A stretch of 64,000 nt of DNA. Source: a virus. Taxonomy: Duplodnaviria > Caudoviricetes. Below, in pieces: positions 2,945 to 45,450 of this stretch. The DNA is taken from IMG/VR virus record IMGVR_UViG_3300032030_000073, positions 4,086 through 68,085 of that record. The stretch is one strand, 5' to 3'. The notes beneath the pieces were generated by a model. That model was given only the letters and a program-made list of their open reading frames with translations, was not told the origin of the DNA and ran no database searches. Every line of letters starts with the position of its first letter. The first letter of the stretch is position 1. The position numbers were made by a program, and so were the translations under genes.

Positions 2945-3022
2945 AACGCCCCTAGAATCGCTCCGCGCTGCTCGGACGTATCATTTGCCGTCCAGACCGC
3001 TCCGCGCGCTCCTAGGGGCGTT
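2945..3022. repeat. 11-bp inverted repeat enclosing a 10-bp direct repeat
   Basis: AACGCCCCTAG (2945-2955) / CTAGGGGCGTT (3012-3022); CGCTCCGCGC twice inside. Confidence 0.6.
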
Positions 3023-3485
3023 CTTGCCGCGTTCTAGCGAATCTACCGCCCGTTCCGCCATTCACATACACACGGGGGCCCCCACGAGGCTACTCGGCCC
3101 CGGCCCCGCGCCGACACCCACCTGCGCCCCCATACCCGGTACGGCGGGGGCCGATGACGGCGCGGCGGCGCATCCATCGATCTGCGCTCGCGGCTCCGTG
3201 CGTCGGTGTTACGCTGCTCTGCGCTCTGCGATTGCGAGGGATTGCGCTCTGCGCCTGCCCTCGATTGCGCCGCTCTGCGCGTGGTGGAGGGTATCTAACC
3301 CTCCGCAGATTGGCAGAAATCCCAAACAAACGCCCATGCCAGACCGCACAGCCTTGCCAACTCGCAACAATCTCGCAAAAATCCCGCAGCCAACCCGCCG
3401 AGGACGGCACGGACGATCGATTGTCCAACGCGTGGCATGGTCCATCCTGGACGTCAACCAGTCAAATCCGGCAGCCGATCTATCG

Positions 3486-3567
3486 CATTTGTGACAGATT
3501 TCAGAATTGTGTCACAAATGAAGGCGGGCGGATGCCGTTTGTGACAAAATCCGCGAATGTGTCACAA
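3486..3567. repeat. Two tandem dyad sites TTGTGACA-N13-TGTCACAA, 50 bp apart
   Basis: CATTTGTGACA 3486-3496 / TGTCACAAATG 3510-3520; TTGTGACA 3539-3546 / TGTCACAA 3560-3567; both spacers 13 nt. Confidence 0.85.
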
Positions 3568-3641
3568 CACGGGAGCGCGCGCAAACGCCACAAACGCGAG
3601 ACCCGGCCTTATCGCGGAAAAACGGCCTCAAATATGCCGTT

Positions 3642-28176: not shown

Positions 28177-28497
28177 ATGATTTACATTGCAGGGCCAATG
28201 CGGGGATTGCCGCATTCCAATTACCATTCATTCCGCGCGGCGGCGGAGCGGTTGCGCGCCGTGGGGCACAAAGTACAGAATCCCGCAGAGATCGGGGAGC
28301 GTTTCGGCGGCATTGACGAACTGCTTTCAAATGACGCCACGCTTGCCGCGTGCGTGAAAGAGGAATTGCGCATCCTGGCGGAATGTGATTCTATCTATCT
28401 CTTGCACGGATGGCAGTATTCAGAGGGCGCACGCGCCGAATTGAAGCTTGCCATTGAAAAGGGATTGGATATCTTCCTGGAGCCTGATTATCCATAA
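28177..28497 (+). CDS. DUF4406 family (nucleoside deoxyribosyltransferase-like fold)
   Basis: IYIAGPMRG...NYHSF...NPAE...CDSIYLLHGWQYSEGARAE. Confidence 0.85.
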   Translation: MIYIAGPMRGLPHSNYHSFRAAAERLRAVGHKVQNPAEIGERFGGIDELLSNDATLAACVKEELRILAECDSIYLLHGWQYSEGARAELKLAIEKGLDIFLEPDYP

Positions 28498-28507
28498 AGG
28501 AGATCAA

Positions 28508-29719
28508 ATGTGGAAAAGCCGAAATACTCGCTGCACCTTTTCGCCGGAGCCGGAGGAGGACTGCTCGCCGACATCATCGACGGGATACGCCCCGTCTGCG
28601 CCGTCGAAATCGAGAAGCATCCCCAGCGCATCCTCGCAAAGCGGTTCCCCGACCTCGCAATCTGGGATGACGTGCGGACGTTCCGCGCCGACAATCCGGA
28701 CTGCGCGGAGGCGTTCACGCAACTTCGCGCTCACGCCGACGAACTTGTCATTGCCGGAGGCTTCCCGTGCCAGGATATCAGCTGCGCGGGACGCGGCGCG
28801 GGCCTACGCGGAGCGCGTAGCGGCCTATGGCGAGAGTATGCGCGTATCATTGGCGAGATACGACCGCGATTCGTGTTCGTGGAAAATTCACCCATGCTTA
28901 TTCGGCGGGGACTTGGCGACGTTCTCGGAGGCTTGGCCGCGATGGGGTATGATGCTGCGTGGTGTGTCGTGTCGGCTGCCGACATGGGAGCCATGCACCT
29001 GCGCGAGCGGTTCTGGCTCACGGCCCGGCGCATGGCCGATGCCGACGGTCCACGGGAATAACAACTACAAAGGCGCAAGCGCAAAAAGCGGCGATGGGCT
29101 GATGACGGTGGTTAGACGCAAAGAGGAAATGATACCTTCGCCACAGGCAAGGGATAGTCATGGCGGTACGGCGCGTCCGCATGGCTGGGCGAAGTCCGAA
29201 GCGGGTGAGCAGCGCAACATCAACGACTTTGTGCTGCGTTTTCCGACATCTAAAGCGAGAGACGCCATCAAGTGTTCGCCCGGGCAAAAGCCGCGAGACG
29301 ACTTGAAATGCGCCGTCGAAATTGGCACGACGAAATCAGCGACATATCCGACGCCGCGAGTCAATTCATTGTGCGGCGGTACGGGCGCATGGAACGCGAT
29401 CCAGAATAATCCGAACCTCACCGTCGAAGAAAAACGCGGCATGACATCTACACACGGCCTGCTTAACCCCGACTGGGTGGAATGGCTCATGTTCTGGCCT
29501 GTCGGCTGGACTAACCTCGATACGCCGAACCACCGCCTCGTCTGGCTCGACCCGTCAATCGACCCCGCCGATTTCGATGACGGCGCGAGGATCCCTATAA
29601 TCACTACGCGCCGCGAGAACCGTCCCGCGCGCATCAAGGAGTGTGGCAACGGGCAGTTCCCCCTCTCCGCCGTTGCCGCGTTCTTCTGGGGCCTCTGCGT
29701 TTTGGAGGTCGTAGTATGA
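28508..29719 (+). CDS. C5-cytosine DNA methyltransferase, beta subunit (TRD plus motifs IX/X), overlapping alpha in another frame
   Basis: TFSEAWPRWGMM, PTP-like repeats, LNPDWVEWLMFWPVGWT, RIKECGNGQ. Confidence 0.75.
   Translation: MWKSRNTRCTFSPEPEEDCSPTSSTGYAPSAPSKSRSIPSASSQSGSPTSQSGMTCGRSAPTIRTARRRSRNFALTPTNLSLPEASRARISAARDAARAYAERVAAYGESMRVSLARYDRDSCSWKIHPCLFGGDLATFSEAWPRWGMMLRGVSCRLPTWEPCTCASGSGSRPGAWPMPTVHGNNNYKGASAKSGDGLMTVVRRKEEMIPSPQARDSHGGTARPHGWAKSEAGEQRNINDFVLRFPTSKARDAIKCSPGQKPRDDLKCAVEIGTTKSATYPTPRVNSLCGGTGAWNAIQNNPNLTVEEKRGMTSTHGLLNPDWVEWLMFWPVGWTNLDTPNHRLVWLDPSIDPADFDDGARIPIITTRRENRPARIKECGNGQFPLSAVAAFFWGLCVLEVVV
28510..29061 (+). CDS. C5-cytosine DNA methyltransferase, alpha subunit (motifs I-VIII)
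   Basis: HLFAGAGG, GGFPCQD, VENS and HLRERFW motifs; ends before motifs IX/X; GTG start. Confidence 0.88.
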   Translation: MEKPKYSLHLFAGAGGGLLADIIDGIRPVCAVEIEKHPQRILAKRFPDLAIWDDVRTFRADNPDCAEAFTQLRAHADELVIAGGFPCQDISCAGRGAGLRGARSGLWREYARIIGEIRPRFVFVENSPMLIRRGLGDVLGGLAAMGYDAAWCVVSAADMGAMHLRERFWLTARRMADADGPRE

Positions 29720-34533: not shown

Positions 34534-37500
34534 TCACTTCCGGCGCGAACGGCGAATCTTGTCCAGCAGGATCGACTTCTGCCGTTCGATCTCGTTTGTC
34601 AGCGATGCCGTTGGCGTGCCGCCCTTCTTCTCGATGTCCTTCGCCTTGCGCTCAAGCCGGTTGACGGCCTTGATGCGCGCGTCGATGTCGCCGCGCACGG
34701 AATCGGCCATGAGCGGGCTTTCAGACTTCATGCCGTCAAGCAGCTCCTTCCTTTCAGACTGCGTGAGTTCCGCGTCCTTGCTGATGGCGTCGTATGCCCT
34801 CTTTTCTTCCAAGAAGCGGTTGACGGCGTTGTCGTAGGGCTTTCGGTCGTATGTCGAGCCTCCAGCGCCGAGAATCGACAGCGGAACCGTGACAAGCGAT
34901 TTGCCGACGCCGTTCTGCACGATCTGGTCCTTCACGTCATCGAACGTTAGCGGGACGAGCATTTCCCAAACCATATTGCCGACGCCGTACTCTTCGCCCA
35001 CGTAGTCCTTGCCTTCCCAGAGAGCGACAATGGTAGACGCCGACGGGGACAGCTTGCCTTGCAGATAGCGCCCGATCGCACCCATGGTCGTCGGACCGTT
35101 GAAGTCTCCAAACTTCATCACGCGTCCCGTGCTAGAGCGCTTGGACTTCGTTGCCAGCTGATGCACAAGCCTGTTGAACGTCGATTCGCCGCCCGTAAGG
35201 TCTATCGTAGTGTTGCCGATCTTCGGAGAGGCTATCATCATCATCTTCTCGAACCAGTCGGCCTGCGAGAAGTCGTACTTGTCGTCGTCGTCCGAAAACA
35301 GCCATTTGAGGAGCGAGCCGATGGCAAGCATCGCGACGGTCGATCTCAGATGCTCGCGAAGACCGATCTTCGCCGCCGTCTTGCGCTCGTCGTTCGACAC
35401 CTTATCGAACGAACCGTCGGCGTTCTTTATCCCCTTCGCGACGAGCGGATGCCAAATGTCGTATCCGACGGCGGACTGGACGCGGGAAATGGCGAGCTGC
35501 GGCGCCCAGAAGATGTCGTTCACCCACGCCTTCTGCAACGCCTGGCGGCGCTCCTTCGAGAGCGCGGCGGAGCCGTTCCAGATGTTGATCATGTCGGCTA
35601 TCATCTTCTTCTGCCACGGCGTCGCGCCACCTGGAATGCCGTTTACGATGGACGTGTAGAGGTCTGCGGACATGGCGTTGAGGTACGTCAGGTAGTGACG
35701 TTCGCTCTTCAGCATGAACTCGCCGAAGAGCGGGATGTCCGTGATGGCGTACTCCTTGCCGAAAATCTTCACTTTGTTGCGCTCCATGCCGTGGAACATC
35801 TCGACGTCGCGGTCGCTCTGCGCGTCCACTTCGCGGAGGTGAAGTCCGAACTTCTTGACGGCCTCCTGTACGGTCGGGTCGGACAGAATCTCCGTGTTCA
35901 CGTCAAGTAGGCTCGCCTCGGAGCGCGCCGCCGTCCACGCCTTGCCGAACGACCGCGCCGCCTTGACGGGATGTCCGAGCGTCATGCGCGCGGCCTGCCG
36001 AAGGACGGCGGAGAAGTCCATCGTGGCACGAAGCGCGCGCTGGGCGGTCGTGACGAAGCGCAGGAAGTTGACGCCCTTGCGGACGAACGTCGGCACGGTG
36101 GCGTTCTCCGCCTCAAGGCGAAGTTCCGCCAGCTTCTGCCGTCCGCGCTTCATCTGCTCGCCAAGCTCGTCGTACCGCTTCTGCTGGTCTTTCGTCATAG
36201 GCGGCTGCGGCTTCTTCTGCGGACGAATGTCGCCCGTCGCGATGCGTTCCGCGAGACGCGCCAGGGCCTTTTCGCGGCTTGCCATCTTCCGGGCGTTCAG
36301 CGCCTCGATCTCCTCCGGCGTCATGCCGAACGCGTACTTAGCGTTCTTCAGTTCGCGGATGGATTCGCGCACCTGCCTGATGCGGTCGCGCAGCGTCTCT
36401 ATCGTCTCCGAGGTGACGCCCGGACGCTGCGGACGCTTCGAGAAGTCGCCGGACTGCGCACGGGCGAAGTCCTCCATCGCGCGTTCGAGCTCTTTTGCGA
36501 GGAGTTTTTCCGTGAGCGCGATGCGCTGCGCGTCGGTCATCTCGCGCGTCGTTCCGAAAAGTTCGTCGTACTGCTTCTGCAACTCGTCCTTCTCCGCGCG
36601 GAGTTCGCGGACTCGGATGTCGTCAACCACCTTCCGCTTCGGGACTGGTATGCGCTCGCCGGTCTCAATGGCGCGTTTCAGATCAGCGATCCTGTTTTCA
36701 AGGTTCCGTTTTATCGTGTCGAGCGTGCTTTTCAGCCGCCGCTCGTCACGTCCGGCGTCGGGGACTTCCGCCTTTCGGTCGCGCACCCTCTTCGCCCACT
36801 CGCGCTCGTCCTGCGTGGGCTCGTCGCGGATGGGGCCGGTCGCGGGCGGCATCGTGTTCGTCTCGTCCATCCAGTCGATCTGACGCTTCGACCTCGAAAT
36901 GTTGCGGAGGCTGTTCATCAGCCGCTGCGCGTCATAGCGGGACTGCTTGTAGTTGTGCCCGAAGCCCGTCAGCGCGTCACGCACCTGGTTCGCGTCCACG
37001 CCGTCCATGAACGGCGAGATGTCCCGGACAATCGCGTCTATCACCTCTTCCTCGGTGATCTCCGGGTTGAGGAAGCAGTGGTACTCGCCGATCTGGCGGA
37101 GCCACTTGCCCCACGACGGGTACTGCTGGTCGGAAAGCCCGATGAGCGTGCCGCCCGTCTCGGCCGCGCCGACCTCGATCTGCGTGAGCGCGTCCTGGTA
37201 GTTCTGCGCGACCTTGCGCGCCACGTCGCCCACCTTGCGCTCCGTGGCCTTGCGCACCTTCAAGCCGTTCTTCGTCTGGTCGATGACCTTCTTGGAGAGC
37301 GGGATAAGCCGTTCCGTCGCAAGGCGCAGACCTTCCTCGTCAAGCCCCTCGAAGAGCTTTGCGAGGTCGCGTATCCGCGCGTTCATTTCTGGCGTAATCT
37401 TGTCAATGCCGCCAAGGGTCTGCGCGATCCTGCCCGCGATTCCCGCATACGAATAGTCGTGCGCGGCGATGAGCGCGCGGTTCGAGCGCAGCGCGCGGCC

Positions 37501-40500
37501 CTGCTCGGACGCGCCCATCATCGCCGCCTTGCCGGCCTCCGCCATCTGCGCCTTGGCCTGCGCCAGCTTCGCCGACACCTGCCTCAGCTCGTCCCGCAGC
37601 TCCGGCGTCTTGTTCATGTCGTCCTCCGGGATCGCCGCAAGTTCGGCGCGGCGTCTCTCCAGGTCGTTCACGGCGGCCTGCCGCTGGCGGAACAGCACAT
37701 TCAGCGCGACGTTCTCGTAGTCGCGCGTCGGGCGCGGGAACTTCGCCACGGCGCGGGAGAGCTTCGCCATGTACGTGGGGTTGGAGAGCAACGTCTCCAC
37801 CTGCCTCCACATGTCCGCGTCCGTCTTCCTGACGTGCGCGGGTGGCTCCATGCCCGCCGCCTTCAGCGCGGTGGCGATCTCGTCGTTCGTCATGCCGTAC
37901 ACCTCGCGCATGATCTTCTCGGTGGGCGTCTTGTCCTCGCTTGCGGCATACTCCGCCTCGGCGGGCGTAAGCTCCGGCGTGTCGAAGCTGACAAGAGATT
38001 CGCCGAATGGGCCGCGAGGGTCTTCAATGTCGCGTTCGATAGCTTTGTACGCATCGTTTATCTTCTGCGCGACGCGATTAAGCCGTTCAAGGTCTTCTCC
38101 CTTAAAGTTGCCCGACTCTACAAGGTTCTTCAACGCCTCCGCGAACGGCCCGGCCTCTCCTGGGCCGATCGCATACGGATCGAAGTGCATGGAAATGCTG
38201 GCTTCGCCGGATTCGATGGAGTCGAGGATTTCCAGCAGGTCGCCGTTTGTGTACCAGTCAATTTCCTCACGGTCCTCACCAATTCCGTTCCGTTTAAGTT
38301 CTTTCAGCTGGTCGCGCAGTTCCTTCGCGTCCTCGCGATAATACGTCTCTCGTTTTTTGTAATAGTCCACATTGAGCGGATCTTCTTCGGCTAATCTTTT
38401 TTGCTCCCTCGCCTTTGCGTTATCCTCATTGATGCGCCGCTTGAGGTCACGCGCCTCAGATTCCGACGGCGTGTCGTCGGCACCCGCTTTGATATTCCGC
38501 TTCGCAGTCTTGCGCAGGGCGGCGATGTCGTTCAGCATTTGTTCATCATGCGTGGAAATCCACCACAGAGAATGGTCAAGGCGTTCTGGAACCGACGAAT
38601 AATCGGCGCTTAGTTCCGGCGTGTCGAATTGCAGGACGCCGTCGGTCCACTTGTGGTCCACGCGGATGTGCTCGTCCGAGAACGCGACGTAGTTCCACCC
38701 CGCCTTGTCGCCGTCCTTAAGAGTTTTGCCATACGAGTCGACCGGGTACTTCACACCGTCGATGCCGGCTCGCGCAAGGAACTCGGAAGCGGCTTTGGGT
38801 CTATTTGACGTTCTCGGGAAGAACTGGCATGTCAATTTGTATAGGTCTTCGCCTGTCTTGACATTGATGTTTATGTAGCCACCGTTCAACGTAACCGGCT
38901 GATAATAATGTCCGGTTCCATCGTCCGCCCACAGAAGAATCTTACCGTCTTCGTCCGTCCTTCCATATTCATCTTCACGTATTACCCCCTCTTCTTTGGC
39001 TTTGTCTATGATACGATTCACAAGTTCTTGCTCTACCGGCTCGTACCACTTCAAGAGGTGGCTCTCGTCGCCCGGCGCCCGGTTCGTGAAGAACGTTTGC
39101 TCGTAGAGGTGATTGTTTGTACCATACCCTTTAGGGATTATCGCATCATGCCAAGTCGACTTCTCAAGAATGTCTTTAACAACTTCCAAGCCTTCGGCAA
39201 ACTTGTCGTGAGCAAGGCTTTTATGCTTATCAATGGCTTCGGAGACTTCTTCGATAGCCTTTTGTCTTGATGTCTGATTCCACCCGTGCTTTCTCAACTT
39301 CTCACGTGCAGAATCAATCGCCCATTTGGGAAATCCATTTTCGGGCATATCATAACCAGGGTCTTGGGCCAATCCAGATTTGCGAAGACTATCATCATGC
39401 GCATACCCCTCCGCGACGCCGCGCTCTGTGCTCCCGTAGAGCCCCCAGCCGTAGACCTGGCTGCCCTCGCCCGTGCCGATGTACTTAACGCTCGGCCCGT
39501 CGTCCACGCCGCCCTGGCGCGAGCGGTTCGCGTAGTCCGCCGCCGTGCCGGTGTAGATGCCGGGCGTGTCGAAGTCCACGCCGCCCTGCAACGCCCGGAC
39601 GCGCTCCGCGAACTGCGCCTTGAGTTCGGCGCGCTCCGCGTCCGTCTTCGCCGCCCTGTACGCCGCGTCGATGCGCTGGAGGGCGGGGTCGCTGCGCATG
39701 GCCTCCCTTGTCTGCTCCGCCACTCCGCGCCGATATGCGTTGCGCTCCTCTCCCGTGAGCGTGTCCTTCATGCCCGTGGCGGAAATGTCGCCCATCGGCA
39801 CGGTGCGCGTCTCGACCTTCTCCGGCGCGTAGCGGTTCGCGCCCGGCGTGCGCACCTGCACGTCCGCCGTGCCGTCTGCGTTCGCCTTCAGGAACGTGAC
39901 GCGCTGGCCGTCCTTCGCGCCCTTCAGGAACACGCGGTCGCCGCGCTTGAACGCGGGCTTTTGGGGTTTTTCGCCCGTAAAAACGGGCGACACTGGACGC
40001 GTCGCCGTAGGTTTTGCGGCTGGCGCGGCGTTTTCCGCCGACTCCCCACCCTGTGGCGCGCTTGCGGGCGCTTCGTCCCACGAATCGTCGTACTCGCCGA
40101 TCTCGTCAAAAGCCTGATTGGTGGCGCGCCTGACGGCCTCCTCGTATGCCGCGACCTCGCGCTGACGTTGACGGGCAATCTCGCTTCCGTTCGCGTAGTA
40201 TTTCCCAGTCTTGGGGTTTATCACCGAGTGGAACGGCGCTTTCTTCTTGAGTTCGTCGGCGATCTTCTTTGCCTCGGCCATCTTGGCTTCCCAGTCGGCC
40301 TTTGAAGTCGCCTTCGTGAATGTCTTTGGGAACTTCACGTCCGGCAGTTCGACTTCGTACTCCCTGCCGTTCTGGACGATTCGTACAGATTCGCCGTCTC
40401 GCGTCGTTTTCACCACCTGTGGCGCGTCCGCGCTCTTCGGTGGCGTAGTCGTGCCATCCGCGCGCGGCGCGCTTGCAAGGGCGGCTTTGGCGGGTTTCCG

Positions 40501-43500
40501 CGCCGCCTGCTTGCGCTGCCATTCCGCGAAACGCCCGTCGGTGTCCTTCATCTTGTACTTTTCAAGCCACGCAAGGTATTCTGCGGGGCGTTCCGCAGCC
40601 TTCTCCTTCGCGGCGGGCGCGGTCGCTTCACTCTCCGCGATAGGCGAGAAAAGGTCCTGCTGGCCGGTCTGGCCCAGGTCCATCTCCGGCTGCACGTTCA
40701 CCGCGCCGCTGCCCTTCAAGGGCGCTTCCTGGCGCTTCTTGATCTCCGCCTTTTCGCGGCGCTTCTTCTCCTCGGCGGTTATCTGCTCTGCCGTGACACT
40801 TTCGAGCGAGAGTTGCGGCGCGATGCCGAGGTCCGCGTCCATCTGCGCCTTGTCCGCGTCGTCCAGGCGGATCGCGTTCTCCCAGTAGTTCGCCCTCTCC
40901 ACCGCCTTGTCGCGCGCGGCGGCGAGCTGCGCCTTGTCCTTCGGATCGGATATGCCAAGCTCCTTCGCATAGTCCTTGTTGAGGTCGAGACGTCCGCCCT
41001 TGCGCATGGCCGTGCGCAGGTTCTCCGCGATGCGCTTGTACTCGTTCGCCTTCTTCGCGCGGTAGTCGGCGCGCTTCTCCTCCTGCTGGAGCAGAGCAAC
41101 ATCCTCCTCGCTCGTGAAGAGGTCGAGCTGCGTACCGCTGTCGGCCTTCGGCGCGTTCTTGCGGTTCTTCGCCTCCTCTGCGAGCGAACGCGCGAGGATC
41201 GCTAGCTTCTTCCCGCGAACGCCGTCAAGCGCGCGGCGCACGAGGATGCGCTGGAGCGCGGCCTGTTTCGGCGCGGCGTCCGCGATGATTGCGGCCTGCT
41301 CGGCGGAGATCAGTCCGTCTCCGCCTGTTCCTTCCCAGTCGATTGCGCCTCGCGTATCGTCTGTCGCATTTTGGACAATGCCGAACGCCATGCGGCCTTT
41401 CTGCCTGTTGAGGATGCCGGAGGATTTTGCGTCCTCCTCGCTGAATCCCGATTCCTCGAAGAATCTAACATAGTCTTTCACCGTTCCTTTCTCGTCGAGA
41501 ATGTTCGCAACCGCGTCGTAGAGACGCATGTCCTCCGGCGTGTAGCCGTCGGCCTCGCGGAATATGCGCGCGTCGATGTCCTTCCAGCCGGAGCGTTTCG
41601 CCGCGTCCAGCCTGTGGCGGCCCGTCACGATTTCCATTGTGCCGTCCTTGCGCTCGTAGATCGCGATGGGGTTCTCGGCGTTCTCGTAGTATTCGCCAAG
41701 CTCCTGCCCCTTCACGACGCCCGTCTTCGGGTCGGCGTTCTCCTTGAACTGGGTGTCGGGAATCTTGATTCCGTCAACCGGCACGCGACGGCGCTCGCCC
41801 TTGCGGTGCATGACGTTCCAGAAGCTGCTCTCGCTCATGGGCTGCCGCCCCGCATCCCCGCCGATGGTATCGGCGGGCGCAGGACGCTCGGCGGTGTTCA
41901 AATTTTGACCGCCGTTGTCAGATTTTGACGGCTCTACCACTCCCGCATCTGGCGCTTGCGCTCCCGGCTCCGCTCCCGCTTCGGGTTGCGGCGCTTCTTG
42001 CCCCCGCTCTTCGCCCTGTTCGGGCTGCGGCTGTGCTTCATCGGTTCCATTCCTTGCTTCATCCGTTACTCCTTCTTCGTATCTCACTCCGCTGTCACCC
42101 GGCAGCGTTTCAAGCTCGTTCTCGCCCTGCGCGCCCTGTTTCTCCGCCTCGGCGAGCATCACCTCAAGGTCGGACTGGTCTATCGGCACGTTCTCGCCCG
42201 CGTCGCGGCGGCGCTGGTTCAGCTCGTGCTTCCGCTTCTCGTACCACGTCGGCTGGTGGAGCCGTCCCTGCGCGTAACGCGCCATGGCCTCGCGCGCGTA
42301 CTCGTCCATGGACATCGCGGCGGCGACCTGCATCCTCGCCGTGTCCTCGTCCATGCCGGCCGCAACGAATCTCTGCACGGCCCTCTCCTGCTCCGCGAGA
42401 ACGAACTTGCTGAAACCTTCCGCCTGCGCGTTCTGGATGAACTCAACCGTGTTCGCGCCGCGCCCCGTGGCGCTCTCCACGCCCTCGTGGCCCGTCGCCT
42501 CGTGCGCAAGCACGCGCTCCATTTCAGCAGGAGACGGCACGTTGTCGAGGATCACCACGATATGCCCGTCTGGCGTGTGGAAGCCGCCCGCGCCGGGCTG
42601 CTTGAGGCTTCCGTCTGCCTTGAAGAGCTGGTCGGCGCGCGTGATGCCGTAGATGTTTCCGCCGTCGTTGATTGCCTGCGCAACCTGCCAGCGCAGCGCG
42701 GCCTCTGACGGGATGGAAACGACGTTTCGCCCAGCATACTGGCGCTGTACGAGCCCCGTGAGATACTGCGCCTTCTGCGCGTTGTCCGCGTCCATCGACT
42801 GGTTGCGCACGACTTCCTCGTCTGCCTTTTTCTGCGCCTCCTCGAACGAGTACGCGGGAACGGCGTCAAGTCCCCGGAAGTCGTTCATCACGTAGAACGT
42901 GCCGTCGCCCTGGTCCACGATCGTCACGCCGTGCGCGGCGTCGGTCATCGCGTTCATCGGCGCCTGCTTGCCGTCTGGCGTGAAGCGCATCATCTGCTGG
43001 AACACCGGCTTGCCATCCTCTCCGGTCTGTATCGTGAACCTCTCTGGCGCGATACCGCGCTGTTCAAGCGACTGGCGCATCTTCAACCCGTCGCGCGCCG
43101 TCAACTCGTCAACAGCGGCCCTCATCGAATAACCGAGGTTCTTCACTTCTTCCTTCAGCTTGTCCGGGTCGGCGGAATACTGTTGCCACATCTCAGTCAG
43201 TTTTTGCTGCTGCTCCGGCGTGAGCGTGGAGATCGTCTCGTCTGAAATGCCGGAGCGCTTCAGCGCCATGCGGATGTCGCGGCGGGCGTCCGCGGACGAT
43301 ATGTGCTGCGCGACACCCTCGCTCGTGCTCTTCACCGCGCCGATCGCAAGCTGGGCTACGAGCCCGTAGAAGATGTCCCACTGCGTCTGCCAGTTGAGCT
43401 GGTTGTCCTTGAAGTCCTGCCATTCCTGCGCAAGCCCCTTGTATTCAGAAGACTTCCCGTCAAGGCCAATCACCTTCTCGAACGCCTGCACGTTCTCTTC

Positions 43501-45450
43501 CGCAAGTTCCCCGAGCGGGGAGTTGATCTGCGTCATGGCGGTGAAGTCCTGGTACGCCCTGTTGATCGAGCGCAAAGCCTGTCCGGTTTCGGACGCCATG
43601 AACTTGTTGAACCTCTTCGTGCCGAACTCCCTCACCGCGCTCGGCGTCGCCTTGCCGAAAGCCCACCCCGTCGCCTTGCCCGCGCCGCGCAGAAGCCCCA
43701 TCGTGACCGATTCAAGCCCCACCTCCACGGCGGTGTCGAATATCGCGCCGCCGATTGCCTTGTACGCGGCTTCCTCCTCGTCGTCGGGGGCCGCGACCAT
43801 CTTGAACTCGCCGTTGTCGTCAAAACCGTACTCGGGCGTGACGTTCTCCTGGTAGCGGGACATGGCCTCCGTCGCGACAACAGGCACGGCGGAGCCGAGC
43901 ATGGTGGCCGCGCGCACGGCCTTTGCGCCCCAGTTGAGCGCCTGCGCGCCCTTGAACATCGCACCGCCGGGGAGCGCGAACTCCAGCGCGTAGCCGCCCG
44001 ACTCGATGCCGCCCTTCACGATCTTGTCGAGGATGCTCTGCTCCGTCGCGGACAGCTTTCCGCCCGCGTCGAGCTTCGCGATTGCGTCAAGGCGCAGCTC
44101 CTCTCCCGCGTCGTGCTGGATGCGGCCCATGAACTCCGCGTCGTTCTCGTCTGGACGCAGCGATTCAAGCGGGTTCCACGGCTCCAGTCCCGCCTTGCGC
44201 GCGGCGTCGCGGTATTTCTCCGCTTCCGTCTTGCCATCGTAGCCGTCCAGCTTGCCTTCGTAGATGTTGGAGAGGTGTCGCGTGCGCTCGCGCTGCTCGT
44301 TCGGGGCCGAGCGCCCCGCATACGGCATGAGCCTGTCGTACACGGCCTTCGCCGTGCCGAGCCAATCGTCGGTGTAGCGGCGCCTGTCGCCAGTCTCCGC
44401 GAGCGCGCCGAGCCGGACCTGCTCGAACGGCGAGCGCTCCACCTTGCCCTCGCCCTTGCCCATCATGCGGTCGAAGTCCTCGTCGCGGACGTGCAGCTTG
44501 CCCGCCACCATCGCGCCCTCGGACGAGACGCCTTCCGTCTCCTTGAACACGGGCTTGCCGTCGTCACCAACGCCGGTGAACTCCATCAGGCGCGCCGCCT
44601 GCCCGGCCTCGCCCGTGAACGGCCCGTCTCCCTCCTTGTGGTAGACGGCTATCGCGTCGCCGGGCTTGATGGCGTTGCCGTCGGCGTCCTCCAGCACGTC
44701 TCCAGTGAGGAACAGCTCGGGCGCGACCTGCGTGGTCTTGTTTTCCAGCTCCCGCTTGCCGTAGACCGGGCCTGCGATGGACTGCCCGAGCAGGACATTC
44801 TCGTACTTCTTGGTCGCCATCTGCGCGGCCTTGTCGCCAGACTCCTTGACTCGCGCCTCGCGTTTTCTGCGCGCGCGTTCGCCGCGCACGCCTGGGTCGT
44901 GGCGGATTTCGTCGCCCATGTCGTCCCAATGCGACTGGATGTATTCGTTCCAGCCTTTCTGGTAGGCTTTCTGGTGCTCGTCGTGGACGGCACGCGCCAT
45001 CTTGCGCGCCGAATCCTCGTCGTCGGCCTTGCCCCAATGCTCGCCCGTATCGGCGTAGTGCCTGACGGCATCTTCCTGTGACAGCTCCTTGCCGTCAACG
45101 ACCATGGGGATTACCGCAATCTTGCCGTCGCGGTCTTGCACGAGCATTGACTTGGTGGTTGAGTACCCGCTGACCTTGCCGTTCGCGCCGCGCCGGATGA
45201 GCGGCTTGCGCCCTTCCGTGCGCAGATTGCCGCCCCATTGGTTCGTCTGGCCATCAGGCATGGTGGCTGCGCCGCCGTCGCCAGACTCCCATGTGGGGAC
45301 GGGTTGTGCGTCCGCAGAAGCTGACGCCACGGAACCAGTTTCACCAGACGGCCCACCCTCGTCGTCCTCTATCTCGAAACCGCCAAACGCGGAAGAAGAG
45401 GACGGCTTCTTCTCGTCGTCCTCTATCTCGAAACCTCCAAAATCTGCCAT
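34534..45450 (-). CDS. Giant (3638 aa) polyvalent internal-virion/ejection protein: metallopeptidase-like HExxGH, ParB-like and ART-like domains
   Basis: LAHEATGHEG (about 42490), IVTGRHRLDAA (about 41610), IGTGEGSQVYGWGLY...GIDGVKY...NYVAF (38640-39560); last gene of the late operon after two other ejection-type genes. Confidence 0.85.
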   Translation of the reverse strand: MADFGGFEIEDDEKKPSSSSAFGGFEIEDDEGGPSGETGSVASASADAQPVPTWESGDGGAATMPDGQTNQWGGNLRTEGRKPLIRRGANGKVSGYSTTKSMLVQDRDGKIAVIPMVVDGKELSQEDAVRHYADTGEHWGKADDEDSARKMARAVHDEHQKAYQKGWNEYIQSHWDDMGDEIRHDPGVRGERARRKREARVKESGDKAAQMATKKYENVLLGQSIAGPVYGKRELENKTTQVAPELFLTGDVLEDADGNAIKPGDAIAVYHKEGDGPFTGEAGQAARLMEFTGVGDDGKPVFKETEGVSSEGAMVAGKLHVRDEDFDRMMGKGEGKVERSPFEQVRLGALAETGDRRRYTDDWLGTAKAVYDRLMPYAGRSAPNEQRERTRHLSNIYEGKLDGYDGKTEAEKYRDAARKAGLEPWNPLESLRPDENDAEFMGRIQHDAGEELRLDAIAKLDAGGKLSATEQSILDKIVKGGIESGGYALEFALPGGAMFKGAQALNWGAKAVRAATMLGSAVPVVATEAMSRYQENVTPEYGFDDNGEFKMVAAPDDEEEAAYKAIGGAIFDTAVEVGLESVTMGLLRGAGKATGWAFGKATPSAVREFGTKRFNKFMASETGQALRSINRAYQDFTAMTQINSPLGELAEENVQAFEKVIGLDGKSSEYKGLAQEWQDFKDNQLNWQTQWDIFYGLVAQLAIGAVKSTSEGVAQHISSADARRDIRMALKRSGISDETISTLTPEQQQKLTEMWQQYSADPDKLKEEVKNLGYSMRAAVDELTARDGLKMRQSLEQRGIAPERFTIQTGEDGKPVFQQMMRFTPDGKQAPMNAMTDAAHGVTIVDQGDGTFYVMNDFRGLDAVPAYSFEEAQKKADEEVVRNQSMDADNAQKAQYLTGLVQRQYAGRNVVSIPSEAALRWQVAQAINDGGNIYGITRADQLFKADGSLKQPGAGGFHTPDGHIVVILDNVPSPAEMERVLAHEATGHEGVESATGRGANTVEFIQNAQAEGFSKFVLAEQERAVQRFVAAGMDEDTARMQVAAAMSMDEYAREAMARYAQGRLHQPTWYEKRKHELNQRRRDAGENVPIDQSDLEVMLAEAEKQGAQGENELETLPGDSGVRYEEGVTDEARNGTDEAQPQPEQGEERGQEAPQPEAGAEPGAQAPDAGVVEPSKSDNGGQNLNTAERPAPADTIGGDAGRQPMSESSFWNVMHRKGERRRVPVDGIKIPDTQFKENADPKTGVVKGQELGEYYENAENPIAIYERKDGTMEIVTGRHRLDAAKRSGWKDIDARIFREADGYTPEDMRLYDAVANILDEKGTVKDYVRFFEESGFSEEDAKSSGILNRQKGRMAFGIVQNATDDTRGAIDWEGTGGDGLISAEQAAIIADAAPKQAALQRILVRRALDGVRGKKLAILARSLAEEAKNRKNAPKADSGTQLDLFTSEEDVALLQQEEKRADYRAKKANEYKRIAENLRTAMRKGGRLDLNKDYAKELGISDPKDKAQLAAARDKAVERANYWENAIRLDDADKAQMDADLGIAPQLSLESVTAEQITAEEKKRREKAEIKKRQEAPLKGSGAVNVQPEMDLGQTGQQDLFSPIAESEATAPAAKEKAAERPAEYLAWLEKYKMKDTDGRFAEWQRKQAARKPAKAALASAPRADGTTTPPKSADAPQVVKTTRDGESVRIVQNGREYEVELPDVKFPKTFTKATSKADWEAKMAEAKKIADELKKKAPFHSVINPKTGKYYANGSEIARQRQREVAAYEEAVRRATNQAFDEIGEYDDSWDEAPASAPQGGESAENAAPAAKPTATRPVSPVFTGEKPQKPAFKRGDRVFLKGAKDGQRVTFLKANADGTADVQVRTPGANRYAPEKVETRTVPMGDISATGMKDTLTGEERNAYRRGVAEQTREAMRSDPALQRIDAAYRAAKTDAERAELKAQFAERVRALQGGVDFDTPGIYTGTAADYANRSRQGGVDDGPSVKYIGTGEGSQVYGWGLYGSTERGVAEGYAHDDSLRKSGLAQDPGYDMPENGFPKWAIDSAREKLRKHGWNQTSRQKAIEEVSEAIDKHKSLAHDKFAEGLEVVKDILEKSTWHDAIIPKGYGTNNHLYEQTFFTNRAPGDESHLLKWYEPVEQELVNRIIDKAKEEGVIREDEYGRTDEDGKILLWADDGTGHYYQPVTLNGGYININVKTGEDLYKLTCQFFPRTSNRPKAASEFLARAGIDGVKYPVDSYGKTLKDGDKAGWNYVAFSDEHIRVDHKWTDGVLQFDTPELSADYSSVPERLDHSLWWISTHDEQMLNDIAALRKTAKRNIKAGADDTPSESEARDLKRRINEDNAKAREQKRLAEEDPLNVDYYKKRETYYREDAKELRDQLKELKRNGIGEDREEIDWYTNGDLLEILDSIESGEASISMHFDPYAIGPGEAGPFAEALKNLVESGNFKGEDLERLNRVAQKINDAYKAIERDIEDPRGPFGESLVSFDTPELTPAEAEYAASEDKTPTEKIMREVYGMTNDEIATALKAAGMEPPAHVRKTDADMWRQVETLLSNPTYMAKLSRAVAKFPRPTRDYENVALNVLFRQRQAAVNDLERRRAELAAIPEDDMNKTPELRDELRQVSAKLAQAKAQMAEAGKAAMMGASEQGRALRSNRALIAAHDYSYAGIAGRIAQTLGGIDKITPEMNARIRDLAKLFEGLDEEGLRLATERLIPLSKKVIDQTKNGLKVRKATERKVGDVARKVAQNYQDALTQIEVGAAETGGTLIGLSDQQYPSWGKWLRQIGEYHCFLNPEITEEEVIDAIVRDISPFMDGVDANQVRDALTGFGHNYKQSRYDAQRLMNSLRNISRSKRQIDWMDETNTMPPATGPIRDEPTQDEREWAKRVRDRKAEVPDAGRDERRLKSTLDTIKRNLENRIADLKRAIETGERIPVPKRKVVDDIRVRELRAEKDELQKQYDELFGTTREMTDAQRIALTEKLLAKELERAMEDFARAQSGDFSKRPQRPGVTSETIETLRDRIRQVRESIRELKNAKYAFGMTPEEIEALNARKMASREKALARLAERIATGDIRPQKKPQPPMTKDQQKRYDELGEQMKRGRQKLAELRLEAENATVPTFVRKGVNFLRFVTTAQRALRATMDFSAVLRQAARMTLGHPVKAARSFGKAWTAARSEASLLDVNTEILSDPTVQEAVKKFGLHLREVDAQSDRDVEMFHGMERNKVKIFGKEYAITDIPLFGEFMLKSERHYLTYLNAMSADLYTSIVNGIPGGATPWQKKMIADMINIWNGSAALSKERRQALQKAWVNDIFWAPQLAISRVQSAVGYDIWHPLVAKGIKNADGSFDKVSNDERKTAAKIGLREHLRSTVAMLAIGSLLKWLFSDDDDKYDFSQADWFEKMMMIASPKIGNTTIDLTGGESTFNRLVHQLATKSKRSSTGRVMKFGDFNGPTTMGAIGRYLQGKLSPSASTIVALWEGKDYVGEEYGVGNMVWEMLVPLTFDDVKDQIVQNGVGKSLVTVPLSILGAGGSTYDRKPYDNAVNRFLEEKRAYDAISKDAELTQSERKELLDGMKSESPLMADSVRGDIDARIKAVNRLERKAKDIEKKGGTPTASLTNEIERQKSILLDKIRRSRRK

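Follow-up and report, generated by a model that had tools for sequence, protein, structure and literature searches.

Two overlapping frames at the methyltransferase locus

We analyzed a 64,000-base stretch of the virus record IMGVR_UViG_3300032030_000073 (Caudoviricetes), hereafter the window. The phage record is 68,085 bp long, carries direct terminal repeats and is rated complete, and the source of the window sequence is a sheep-gut metagenome run. At positions 28508-29719 of the window, two overlapping frames, here called alpha and beta, together carry the motifs of a cytosine-5 (C5) DNA methyltransferase. The sequence AAGGAG (28497-28502), which resembles a Shine-Dalgarno (SD) site, is followed by ATCAA and then by ATGTGG. 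Within ATGTGG, the ATG at 28508 opens beta, a frame of 403 amino acids (aa), and the GTG at 28510 opens alpha, a frame of 183 aa. The 549 nucleotides (nt) of alpha are free of stop codons in both frames. This arrangement had been described by an earlier sequence-only reading of the window, and it can be read in the sequence exactly as described. The features of the locus, with ORF for open reading frame, are the following.

28497..28502, plus strand: SD-like AAGGAG, common to both starts; 5 nt to ATG 28508 and 7 nt to GTG 28510
28508..29719, plus strand: beta ORF, 403 aa, ATG start, TGA stop at 29717-29719; leader, variable region, motifs IX and X
28510..29061, plus strand: alpha ORF, 183 aa, GTG start, TAA stop at 29059-29061; putative catalytic half, motifs I-VIII
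28550..28810, plus strand: beta leader, about residues 15-100, over alpha motifs I-IV; stop-free, without amino-acid constraint
28820..29030, plus strand: dual-coding segment, alpha motifs VI-VIII over beta residues of about 105-175 (YDRDSCSWK...FSEAWPRWGMM)
29042..29461, plus strand: beta variable (target-recognition) region with PTP-type repeats; the alpha stop lies within its first motif, PTVHGNNN
29462..29512, plus strand: motif IX-like LNPDWVEWLMFWPVGWT in beta, with conserved columns and tblastn matches
29645..29662, plus strand: motif X-like GNGQFP in beta, which aligns with GNGQVP of main-clade alpha

An in-frame TAA (28495-28497) lies just upstream of alpha, therefore alpha has no other possible canonical start ahead of motif I than GTG 28510. 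Upstream of ATG 28508, the beta frame continues without a stop for 20 more codons, to TTG 28448, over the 3ʹ end of the preceding DUF4406 gene. This TTG was not taken as the beta start because homologues begin at the ATG.

Alpha resembles the catalytic half and beta the distal part of a C5 methyltransferase

The alpha frame matched the Pfam profile PF00145 (DNA_methylase) over profile positions 5-161 of 324, with 92.9 bits (E 3e-26) against a gathering cut-off of 22. It also matched PHROG 363 (E 1.1e-50) and residues 15-178 of M.HhaI (E 1e-19). The score against NCBIfam TIGR00675 (dcm), 77.1 bits, was below the curated cut-off of 100.65, as expected because alpha is half an enzyme. By reading, FAGAGGG (motif I) was placed at 28540-28560, PCQ at 28765-28773, ENSP at 28882-28893 and HLRERFW at 28996-29016. 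FAGAGGG, GFPCQDIS, ENSP and HLRERFW correspond to the catalytic motifs I, IV, VI and VIII, and they were invariant in the family alignment. These matches indicate that alpha is the S-adenosylmethionine-binding and catalytic half of the enzyme, with motifs I-VIII, and homologous to canonical C5 methyltransferases.

The beta frame matched PHROG 1008, 'DNA methyltransferase', over residues 69-391 (E 7.5e-26), and its full-length homologues reached 100% coverage. Homologues of the window type share PTPTVxGNxN in the beta variable region. In the motif IX-like region, the beta columns L319-T335 were invariant or near-invariant, and the LNPDWVEWLMFWPVGWT region gave tblastn matches at 65-81% identity in the +1 frame (the frame of beta relative to alpha) of viral loci. 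A contig scan with the C-terminal part of beta returned no confirmed relative.

The family has two architectures. In the main clade, an unconserved linker separates motifs I-VIII from motif X in the methyltransferase frame, and the +1 frame carries the leader, PTP-type repeats and motif IX. In the subclade of the window (the window, L001, L004, L081, L082 and L086-L089), alpha stops 10-20 codons after motif VIII, inside the PTPTVxGNxN of beta, and motif X is found in the beta frame. In all five window-type loci tabulated (the window and L086-L089), the alpha stop falls at beta codon 176-183. The GNGQFP of beta aligns with GNGQVP at the C-terminus of main-clade alpha proteins.

The structural model of P0027, a single-chain relative, had a predicted local distance difference test score (pLDDT) of 85-96 in the catalytic half and 73-81 in the motif X helix. 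It superposed on M.HhaI residues 8-327, from motif I to motif X, with Z 21.2 and a root-mean-square deviation of 3.4 Å over 212 residues, and its motif X helix aligned with the M.HhaI C-terminus. The pLDDT was below 50 in the motif IX region of P0027, and no match to a hidden Markov model covered motif IX or X. The model of P0027 supports the assignment of GNGQ(F/V)P as motif X. The motifs are divided as the sequence-only reading had proposed: the GTG frame holds I-VIII, and the ATG frame holds the variable region together with IX and X.

The +1 frame is kept free of stop codons

The numbers of stops expected in the other frames were obtained from synonymous-codon shuffles of alpha. For the window copy alone, 300 shuffles placed 3.3 stops in the +1 frame on average, and the probability of observing none was 0.01. 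Scanning viral contigs with alpha yielded 80 loci (51-62% identity). In 79 distinct related genes, the +1 frame over motifs I-VIII contained only 6 stops against 228 expected; for the +2 frame of 79 distinct sequences, the numbers were 678 and 534. The 6 stops were confined to five loci (L032, L059, L070, L074 and L076). They were taken as the TGA just before the beta ATG, because the matched region of these five loci begins at the first or second codon. In almost all of the 80 loci, the methyltransferase and +1 frames were open over the whole gene (280-350 codons), and the +2 frame was broken every few dozen codons. Many genes of the family have about 50% guanine plus cytosine (G+C), therefore composition is not the cause of the open +1 frame. 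Stop-codon avoidance across homologues was a check suggested along with the sequence-only reading; it came out in favor of that reading, with the +1 frame open back to the beta ATG.

An independent assembly of the sheep-gut run reproduced 28455-29160, which includes both starts and the alpha stop, without any difference. Close relatives from other samples, namely L081 (NCBI assembly), L082 and L086-L089, keep the split. The two-frame layout is not a result of chance or sequencing error.

Paired starts and the beta N-terminus are conserved

Three start arrangements were found in the family, each behind one SD-like site and with starts 2-5 nt apart. In NTGAATGAGYTGG, the beta ATG lies 4 nt after the alpha start. 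This pattern had 65 matches, and about 20 of them were the same sites in shifted register, so that the number of distinct sites is nearer 45-50. Of the 65 matches, 52 have ATG, GTG or TTG as the alpha-start triplet; the remaining 13 have a Leu codon at this position, and alpha must start elsewhere in them. In ATGTCATGG, found in 6 loci, the beta ATG lies 5 nt before the alpha ATG. ATGTGG, with the beta ATG 2 nt before the alpha GTG, occurred in 9 diverged loci including the window. The double start seen in the window is thus a recurrent feature, as are the two other arrangements, which have starts 4-5 nt apart and one SD-like site. The distances from the SD-like site, given as the commonest values among aligned loci, were as follows.

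NTGAATGAGYTGG: 4 nt to the alpha start, 8 nt to the beta ATG
ATGTGG: 6-7 nt to the alpha start, 4-5 nt to the beta ATG
ATGTCATGG: 11-12 nt to the alpha start, 6-7 nt to the beta ATG

Both starts are thus 4-12 nt away from the SD-like site. In a goat-gut variant of the window gene, the upstream sequence is unrelated, yet GAGGAG, 5 nt and ATGTGG are seen again.

Beta always begins beside the alpha start, and its N-terminus is M-(S)-W throughout. The Ser codon is AGY in one start arrangement and TCA in another. Residue 3 was aromatic in 43 of 43 type-1 genes (W in 40, Y in 2 and F in 1), although in the rest of alpha only 25% of Leu codons are TTG or CTG. Three different alpha contexts give rise to the Trp codon, namely a Leu codon, GTG or ATG, each followed by G. 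Among 139 further cluster representatives, the N-termini included MSW (69), MSY (12), MTW (7), MAW (6) and MW (12). In L081 and L082, a short beta is annotated, yet the frame is open back to the ATG beside the alpha start. Because of the switch of Ser codons, the aromatic residue 3 and the differing alpha contexts of Trp, we read the beta N-terminus as being under protein-level selection, and this peptide would exist only if translation begins at that ATG.

Constraint on beta appears to start over motifs VI-VIII of alpha

Codon identity was measured where alpha residues were identical, in pairs at 50-68% alpha identity. Across most of alpha, the excess over expectation was -0.09 to +0.12, that is, at expectation. 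It rose to +0.22 to +0.27 only over VRPRFVFVENSPML..LGDLAxMGYDAxW, a block that overlaps the YDxDxxSWK...FSxTWPxWGMM segment of beta. The invariant beta residues G108, W125, P144, G147 and G152 lie within this dual-coding segment. Amino-acid constraint on beta thus begins near residue 105, and beta has three parts. A selected N-terminal tripeptide comes first; the leader behind it, about 100 residues long, is only held open, and the functional body starts over alpha motifs VI-VIII. This picture agrees with Mycobacterium phage Ryadel, whose annotated internal-start beta retains the dual-coding segment, and with the effect of N-terminal deletions on M.EcoHK31I beta given below. The AlphaFold2 model of beta alone points the same way, with a pLDDT of about 30 over residues 1-94, but this is weak evidence because the model is poor as a whole.

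Comparison with known two-chain and single-chain enzymes

The catalytic half encoded by the window is homologous to that of canonical single-chain C5 methyltransferases (M.HhaI, M.HaeIII; PF00145), but the window encodes two chains in two frames. Two-chain enzymes are known. The original study of M.EcoHK31I is said to be that of Lee, Kam and Shaw in 1995, and that of M.AquI reportedly is by Karreman and de Waard in 1990.

M.EcoHK31I of Escherichia coli HK31 recognizes YGGCCR; its beta chain is encoded in another frame of alpha, both chains are needed, and it is the only studied enzyme with the second chain in another frame of the first (PMC2836561, PMC3404938). Deletion of 42-67 N-terminal residues of its beta weakens the association with alpha (PMC2836561). 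M.AquI of Agmenellum quadruplicatum, which recognizes CYCGRG, has motifs I-VIII and IX-X split between its chains (PMC3404938).

The sequence-only reading had likened the window locus to these two enzymes. The comparison is apt, except that here alpha lies inside the beta ORF and not the reverse. Compared by description, the window shares with M.EcoHK31I a C5 methyltransferase encoded as two polypeptides in two frames of one DNA stretch. In M.EcoHK31I, however, beta is wholly inside alpha and carries motif IX only, and alpha keeps the target-recognition domain and motif X. In the window, alpha (28510-29061) is wholly inside beta (28508-29719) and stops after motif VIII, and beta has the variable region, IX and X. 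Beta of the window starts beside the alpha start, whereas that of M.EcoHK31I starts internally. Main-clade relatives (for example L012 and the genes of the phages ABMM1 and S9-5) are nearer to M.EcoHK31I, with I-VIII and X in alpha and IX in beta. With M.AquI, again by description, the window shares an alpha with motifs I-VIII and a beta with the distal variable region, IX and X. It differs from the M.AquI partition in that its IX-X chain is longer, with an N-terminal stretch of about 180 codons that overprints the whole alpha gene, and in that the ribosome-binding site is shared. Going by these descriptions, the window copy combines an M.AquI-like partition of motifs with overprinting in the style of M.EcoHK31I.

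Proposed mechanism and alternative explanations

We consider it probable that two polypeptides, translated from one SD site, form a heterodimeric C5 methyltransferase. Ribosomes at the single AAGGAG would pick either start codon, ATG 28508 or GTG 28510. Those at the ATG would traverse about 100 codons of unconstrained and probably disordered leader over alpha, and would then make functional beta, of which the functional part would begin while still overlapping alpha motifs VI-VIII. Alpha would supply the catalytic half and beta the variable or target-recognition region with motifs IX and X. The two chains would then join into a single enzyme, which experiments have demonstrated in the cases of M.EcoHK31I and M.AquI. 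We infer from the conserved layout that both products are made, that the chains bind and that the shared SD site couples their amounts.

For the family as a whole, we lean slightly toward a broader interpretation. A very large family of phage methyltransferases would be obligately built of two overprinted same-strand genes (180-300 codons), choice of start at a single SD site (starts 2-5 nt apart) would coordinate the subunits, the cost would be a leader of roughly 100 residues kept only free of stops, and in some members a poly-G tract shortly after the starts could turn off both products by slippage.

Several observations weigh against a functional two-chain enzyme with beta translated from its 5ʹ start. 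Beta had no Pfam, NCBIfam or PDB sequence match, and its profile gave only chance-level matches to PDB sequences (E 0.11). The AlphaFold2 model of beta alone was poor, with a mean pLDDT of 44, and shows of the leader only that it is not confidently structured. Most of the leader (about residues 15-100) shows no amino-acid constraint. The conservation of four-fold sites was 0.38 against 0.24 expected, with 0.36 against 0.295 in flanking genes; this average test alone does not separate constraint from baseline, and the per-segment codon test above is more informative. With four-fold conservation only modestly above baseline, it is the stop statistics and the N-terminal motif alone that exclude an untranslated leader. 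Internal Met codons of M.EcoHK31I beta can initiate translation (PMC2836561). In Mycobacterium phage Ryadel, a distant relative, two annotated 'DNA methylase' genes overlap by 209 nt. The beta of Ryadel begins just before the FSGTWPxSGSMRNG segment and has a stop further upstream in its frame, so it must start internally; therefore a 5ʹ start is not obligatory for such enzymes.

The last of these points lead to an alternative in which beta of the window is also initiated internally, for example at ATG 29042 or ATG 29102, in line with the NCBI pipeline's annotation of P0055, or at Met codons of the WGMM segment, and the frame upstream is untranslated. The annotated gene of Ryadel and the initiation within M.EcoHK31I beta, of which the first 42-67 residues are partly dispensable, are precedents for this. 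The unconstrained leader would fit it as well, and gene callers pick a short beta in some relatives (P0055 by the NCBI pipeline, P0038). We nevertheless regard internal initiation as unlikely. It fails to explain why internal stops are absent from about 160-180 leader codons in 79 genes, many of them at about 50% G+C, and why an ATG invariably follows directly after the +1-frame stop and opens a selected M-(S)-W N-terminus. No SD-like sequence was seen by eye before 29042 or 29102, and the frames of L081 and L082 run to the 5ʹ ATG in spite of their short annotation.

A single fused methyltransferase could also be produced by programmed +1 frameshifting close to the end of alpha (29040-29061). 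For the window type, a single +1 shift ahead of TAA 29059 would yield the canonical order of motifs I-VIII, target-recognition domain, IX and X, and natural single-chain relatives such as P0027 do occur. This is very unlikely, however, because frameshifting would constrain neither the upstream +1 frame nor the beta ATG. The position of the alpha stop varies, the tails (RRMADADGPRE, RQTNTNADG, RRHG, HTDGERQQ, RRGD) share no slippery motif, and GAA-TAA gives no +1 re-pairing. For a prfB-type programmed +1 frameshift, no conserved shift site was found at the frame junction among relatives. In the main clade, motif X is back in the alpha frame, therefore a fusion would need two shifts there. Least probable of all is a broken gene or an assembly artefact, that is, an indel of 1 nt after motif VIII with the long +1 frame as a by-product of composition. 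The region does have 57-66% G+C, and frameshifted copies occur in the family (L045, L071, L090, L091 and P0028). Still, relatives at 50-90% identity from other samples have the same split, the independent assembly reproduced the window sequence, and the avoidance of stops is specific to the +1 frame and holds at about 50% G+C.

Distribution and annotation of the family

Of 1.84 billion cluster representatives (50% identity clusters), 33,683 matched the beta profile at E ≤ 0.001, and 5,238 did so at E ≤ 1e-30. The window type is not rare, since motifs IX and X were found in one frame in 84 of the 139 further cluster representatives. A near-DNA search of a phage collection gave only short matches, over alpha. 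Main-clade genes are carried by the cultured phages Acinetobacter phage vB_AbaM_ABMM1 and the P22-like Salmonella phage S9-5, which makes the two-start idea directly testable.

Among the annotated records with whole-gene overlap that were opened, one protein of the two was listed in every case. Gene calls of metagenomes often list beta alone, as 'hypothetical protein'. Such phage methyltransferases are therefore misread as truncated, orphan or unknown. A literature search on overlaps in phage methyltransferases found no paper describing the family-wide layout. The two-frame layout is found again, usually without annotation, in thousands of phage genes. Should the shared site indeed serve translation of both frames, few conserved same-strand gene overlaps in prokaryotic viruses would be longer or more widespread. 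The locus would then also offer a natural example in which two start codons supplied by a single SD site yield partner subunits together.

Variant copies in relatives

Single-frame or chimeric relatives exist (L045, L071, L092/P0027 and P0028), and they look like indel derivatives. P0028 (469 aa, on a 2.8-Mb NCBI contig) starts in the alpha frame with motifs I-IV, continues in the beta frame from GVKWRGSLAKY and is without motifs VI-VIII. Probably it represents a prophage copy that was damaged by an indel and then annotated as a single gene.

Several relatives have a run of 8-12 G residues immediately downstream of the two starts, either within the GxGGG codons of motif I or just behind them: L087:1545 (G9), L090:1543 (G8), L091:508 (G9), L019:2499 (G10), L078:761 and L079:2281 (G12 each), and L015:1327 and L057:2480 (G9 each). 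L090, L091 and L019 are shifted by one base at the run, so that the alpha start runs into the beta body. The window copy has no poly-G run; one low-depth contig of run X3 was without one base at window position 28554. The poly-G tract could be a phase-variable on/off switch or a homopolymer sequencing error.

In the diverged relatives L001 (2747-2770) and L002 (2744-2767), six extra bases lie between the Pro and Cys codons of motif IV. Alpha there reads GGFP-stop-L-CQDIS (TAG CTG in L001, TAA CTG in L002), and the beta frame is open; the two thus share an in-frame stop inside catalytic motif IV. L004 has a large insertion at 2990-3600, in which a third-frame ORF resembles an HNH endonuclease by eye (CxxC...HH...N...CxxCH), and the motif VIII segment AVDVGAPHRRERIWIV is repeated after the insertion. 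Large insertions in beta were also seen in P0010 and P0018 (619-635 aa).

Genomic setting of the locus

The methyltransferase locus sits in a replication module, with an exonuclease V/Dda-like helicase and a primase on the same strand. The DUF4406 gene upstream ends at TAA 28495-28497. Contigs from the runs X1 and X10 diverge from the window directly after this stop (28495), and a goat-gut contig joins the methyltransferase at 28507, coming from different upstream sequence. In this respect the methyltransferase unit is like a mosaic cassette, with its boundary just before the SD site.

On the minus strand of the window, 34534-45450 is occupied by one ORF of 3,638 aa, and matches to an internal virion protein and to a tail protein were obtained with neighbouring ORFs.

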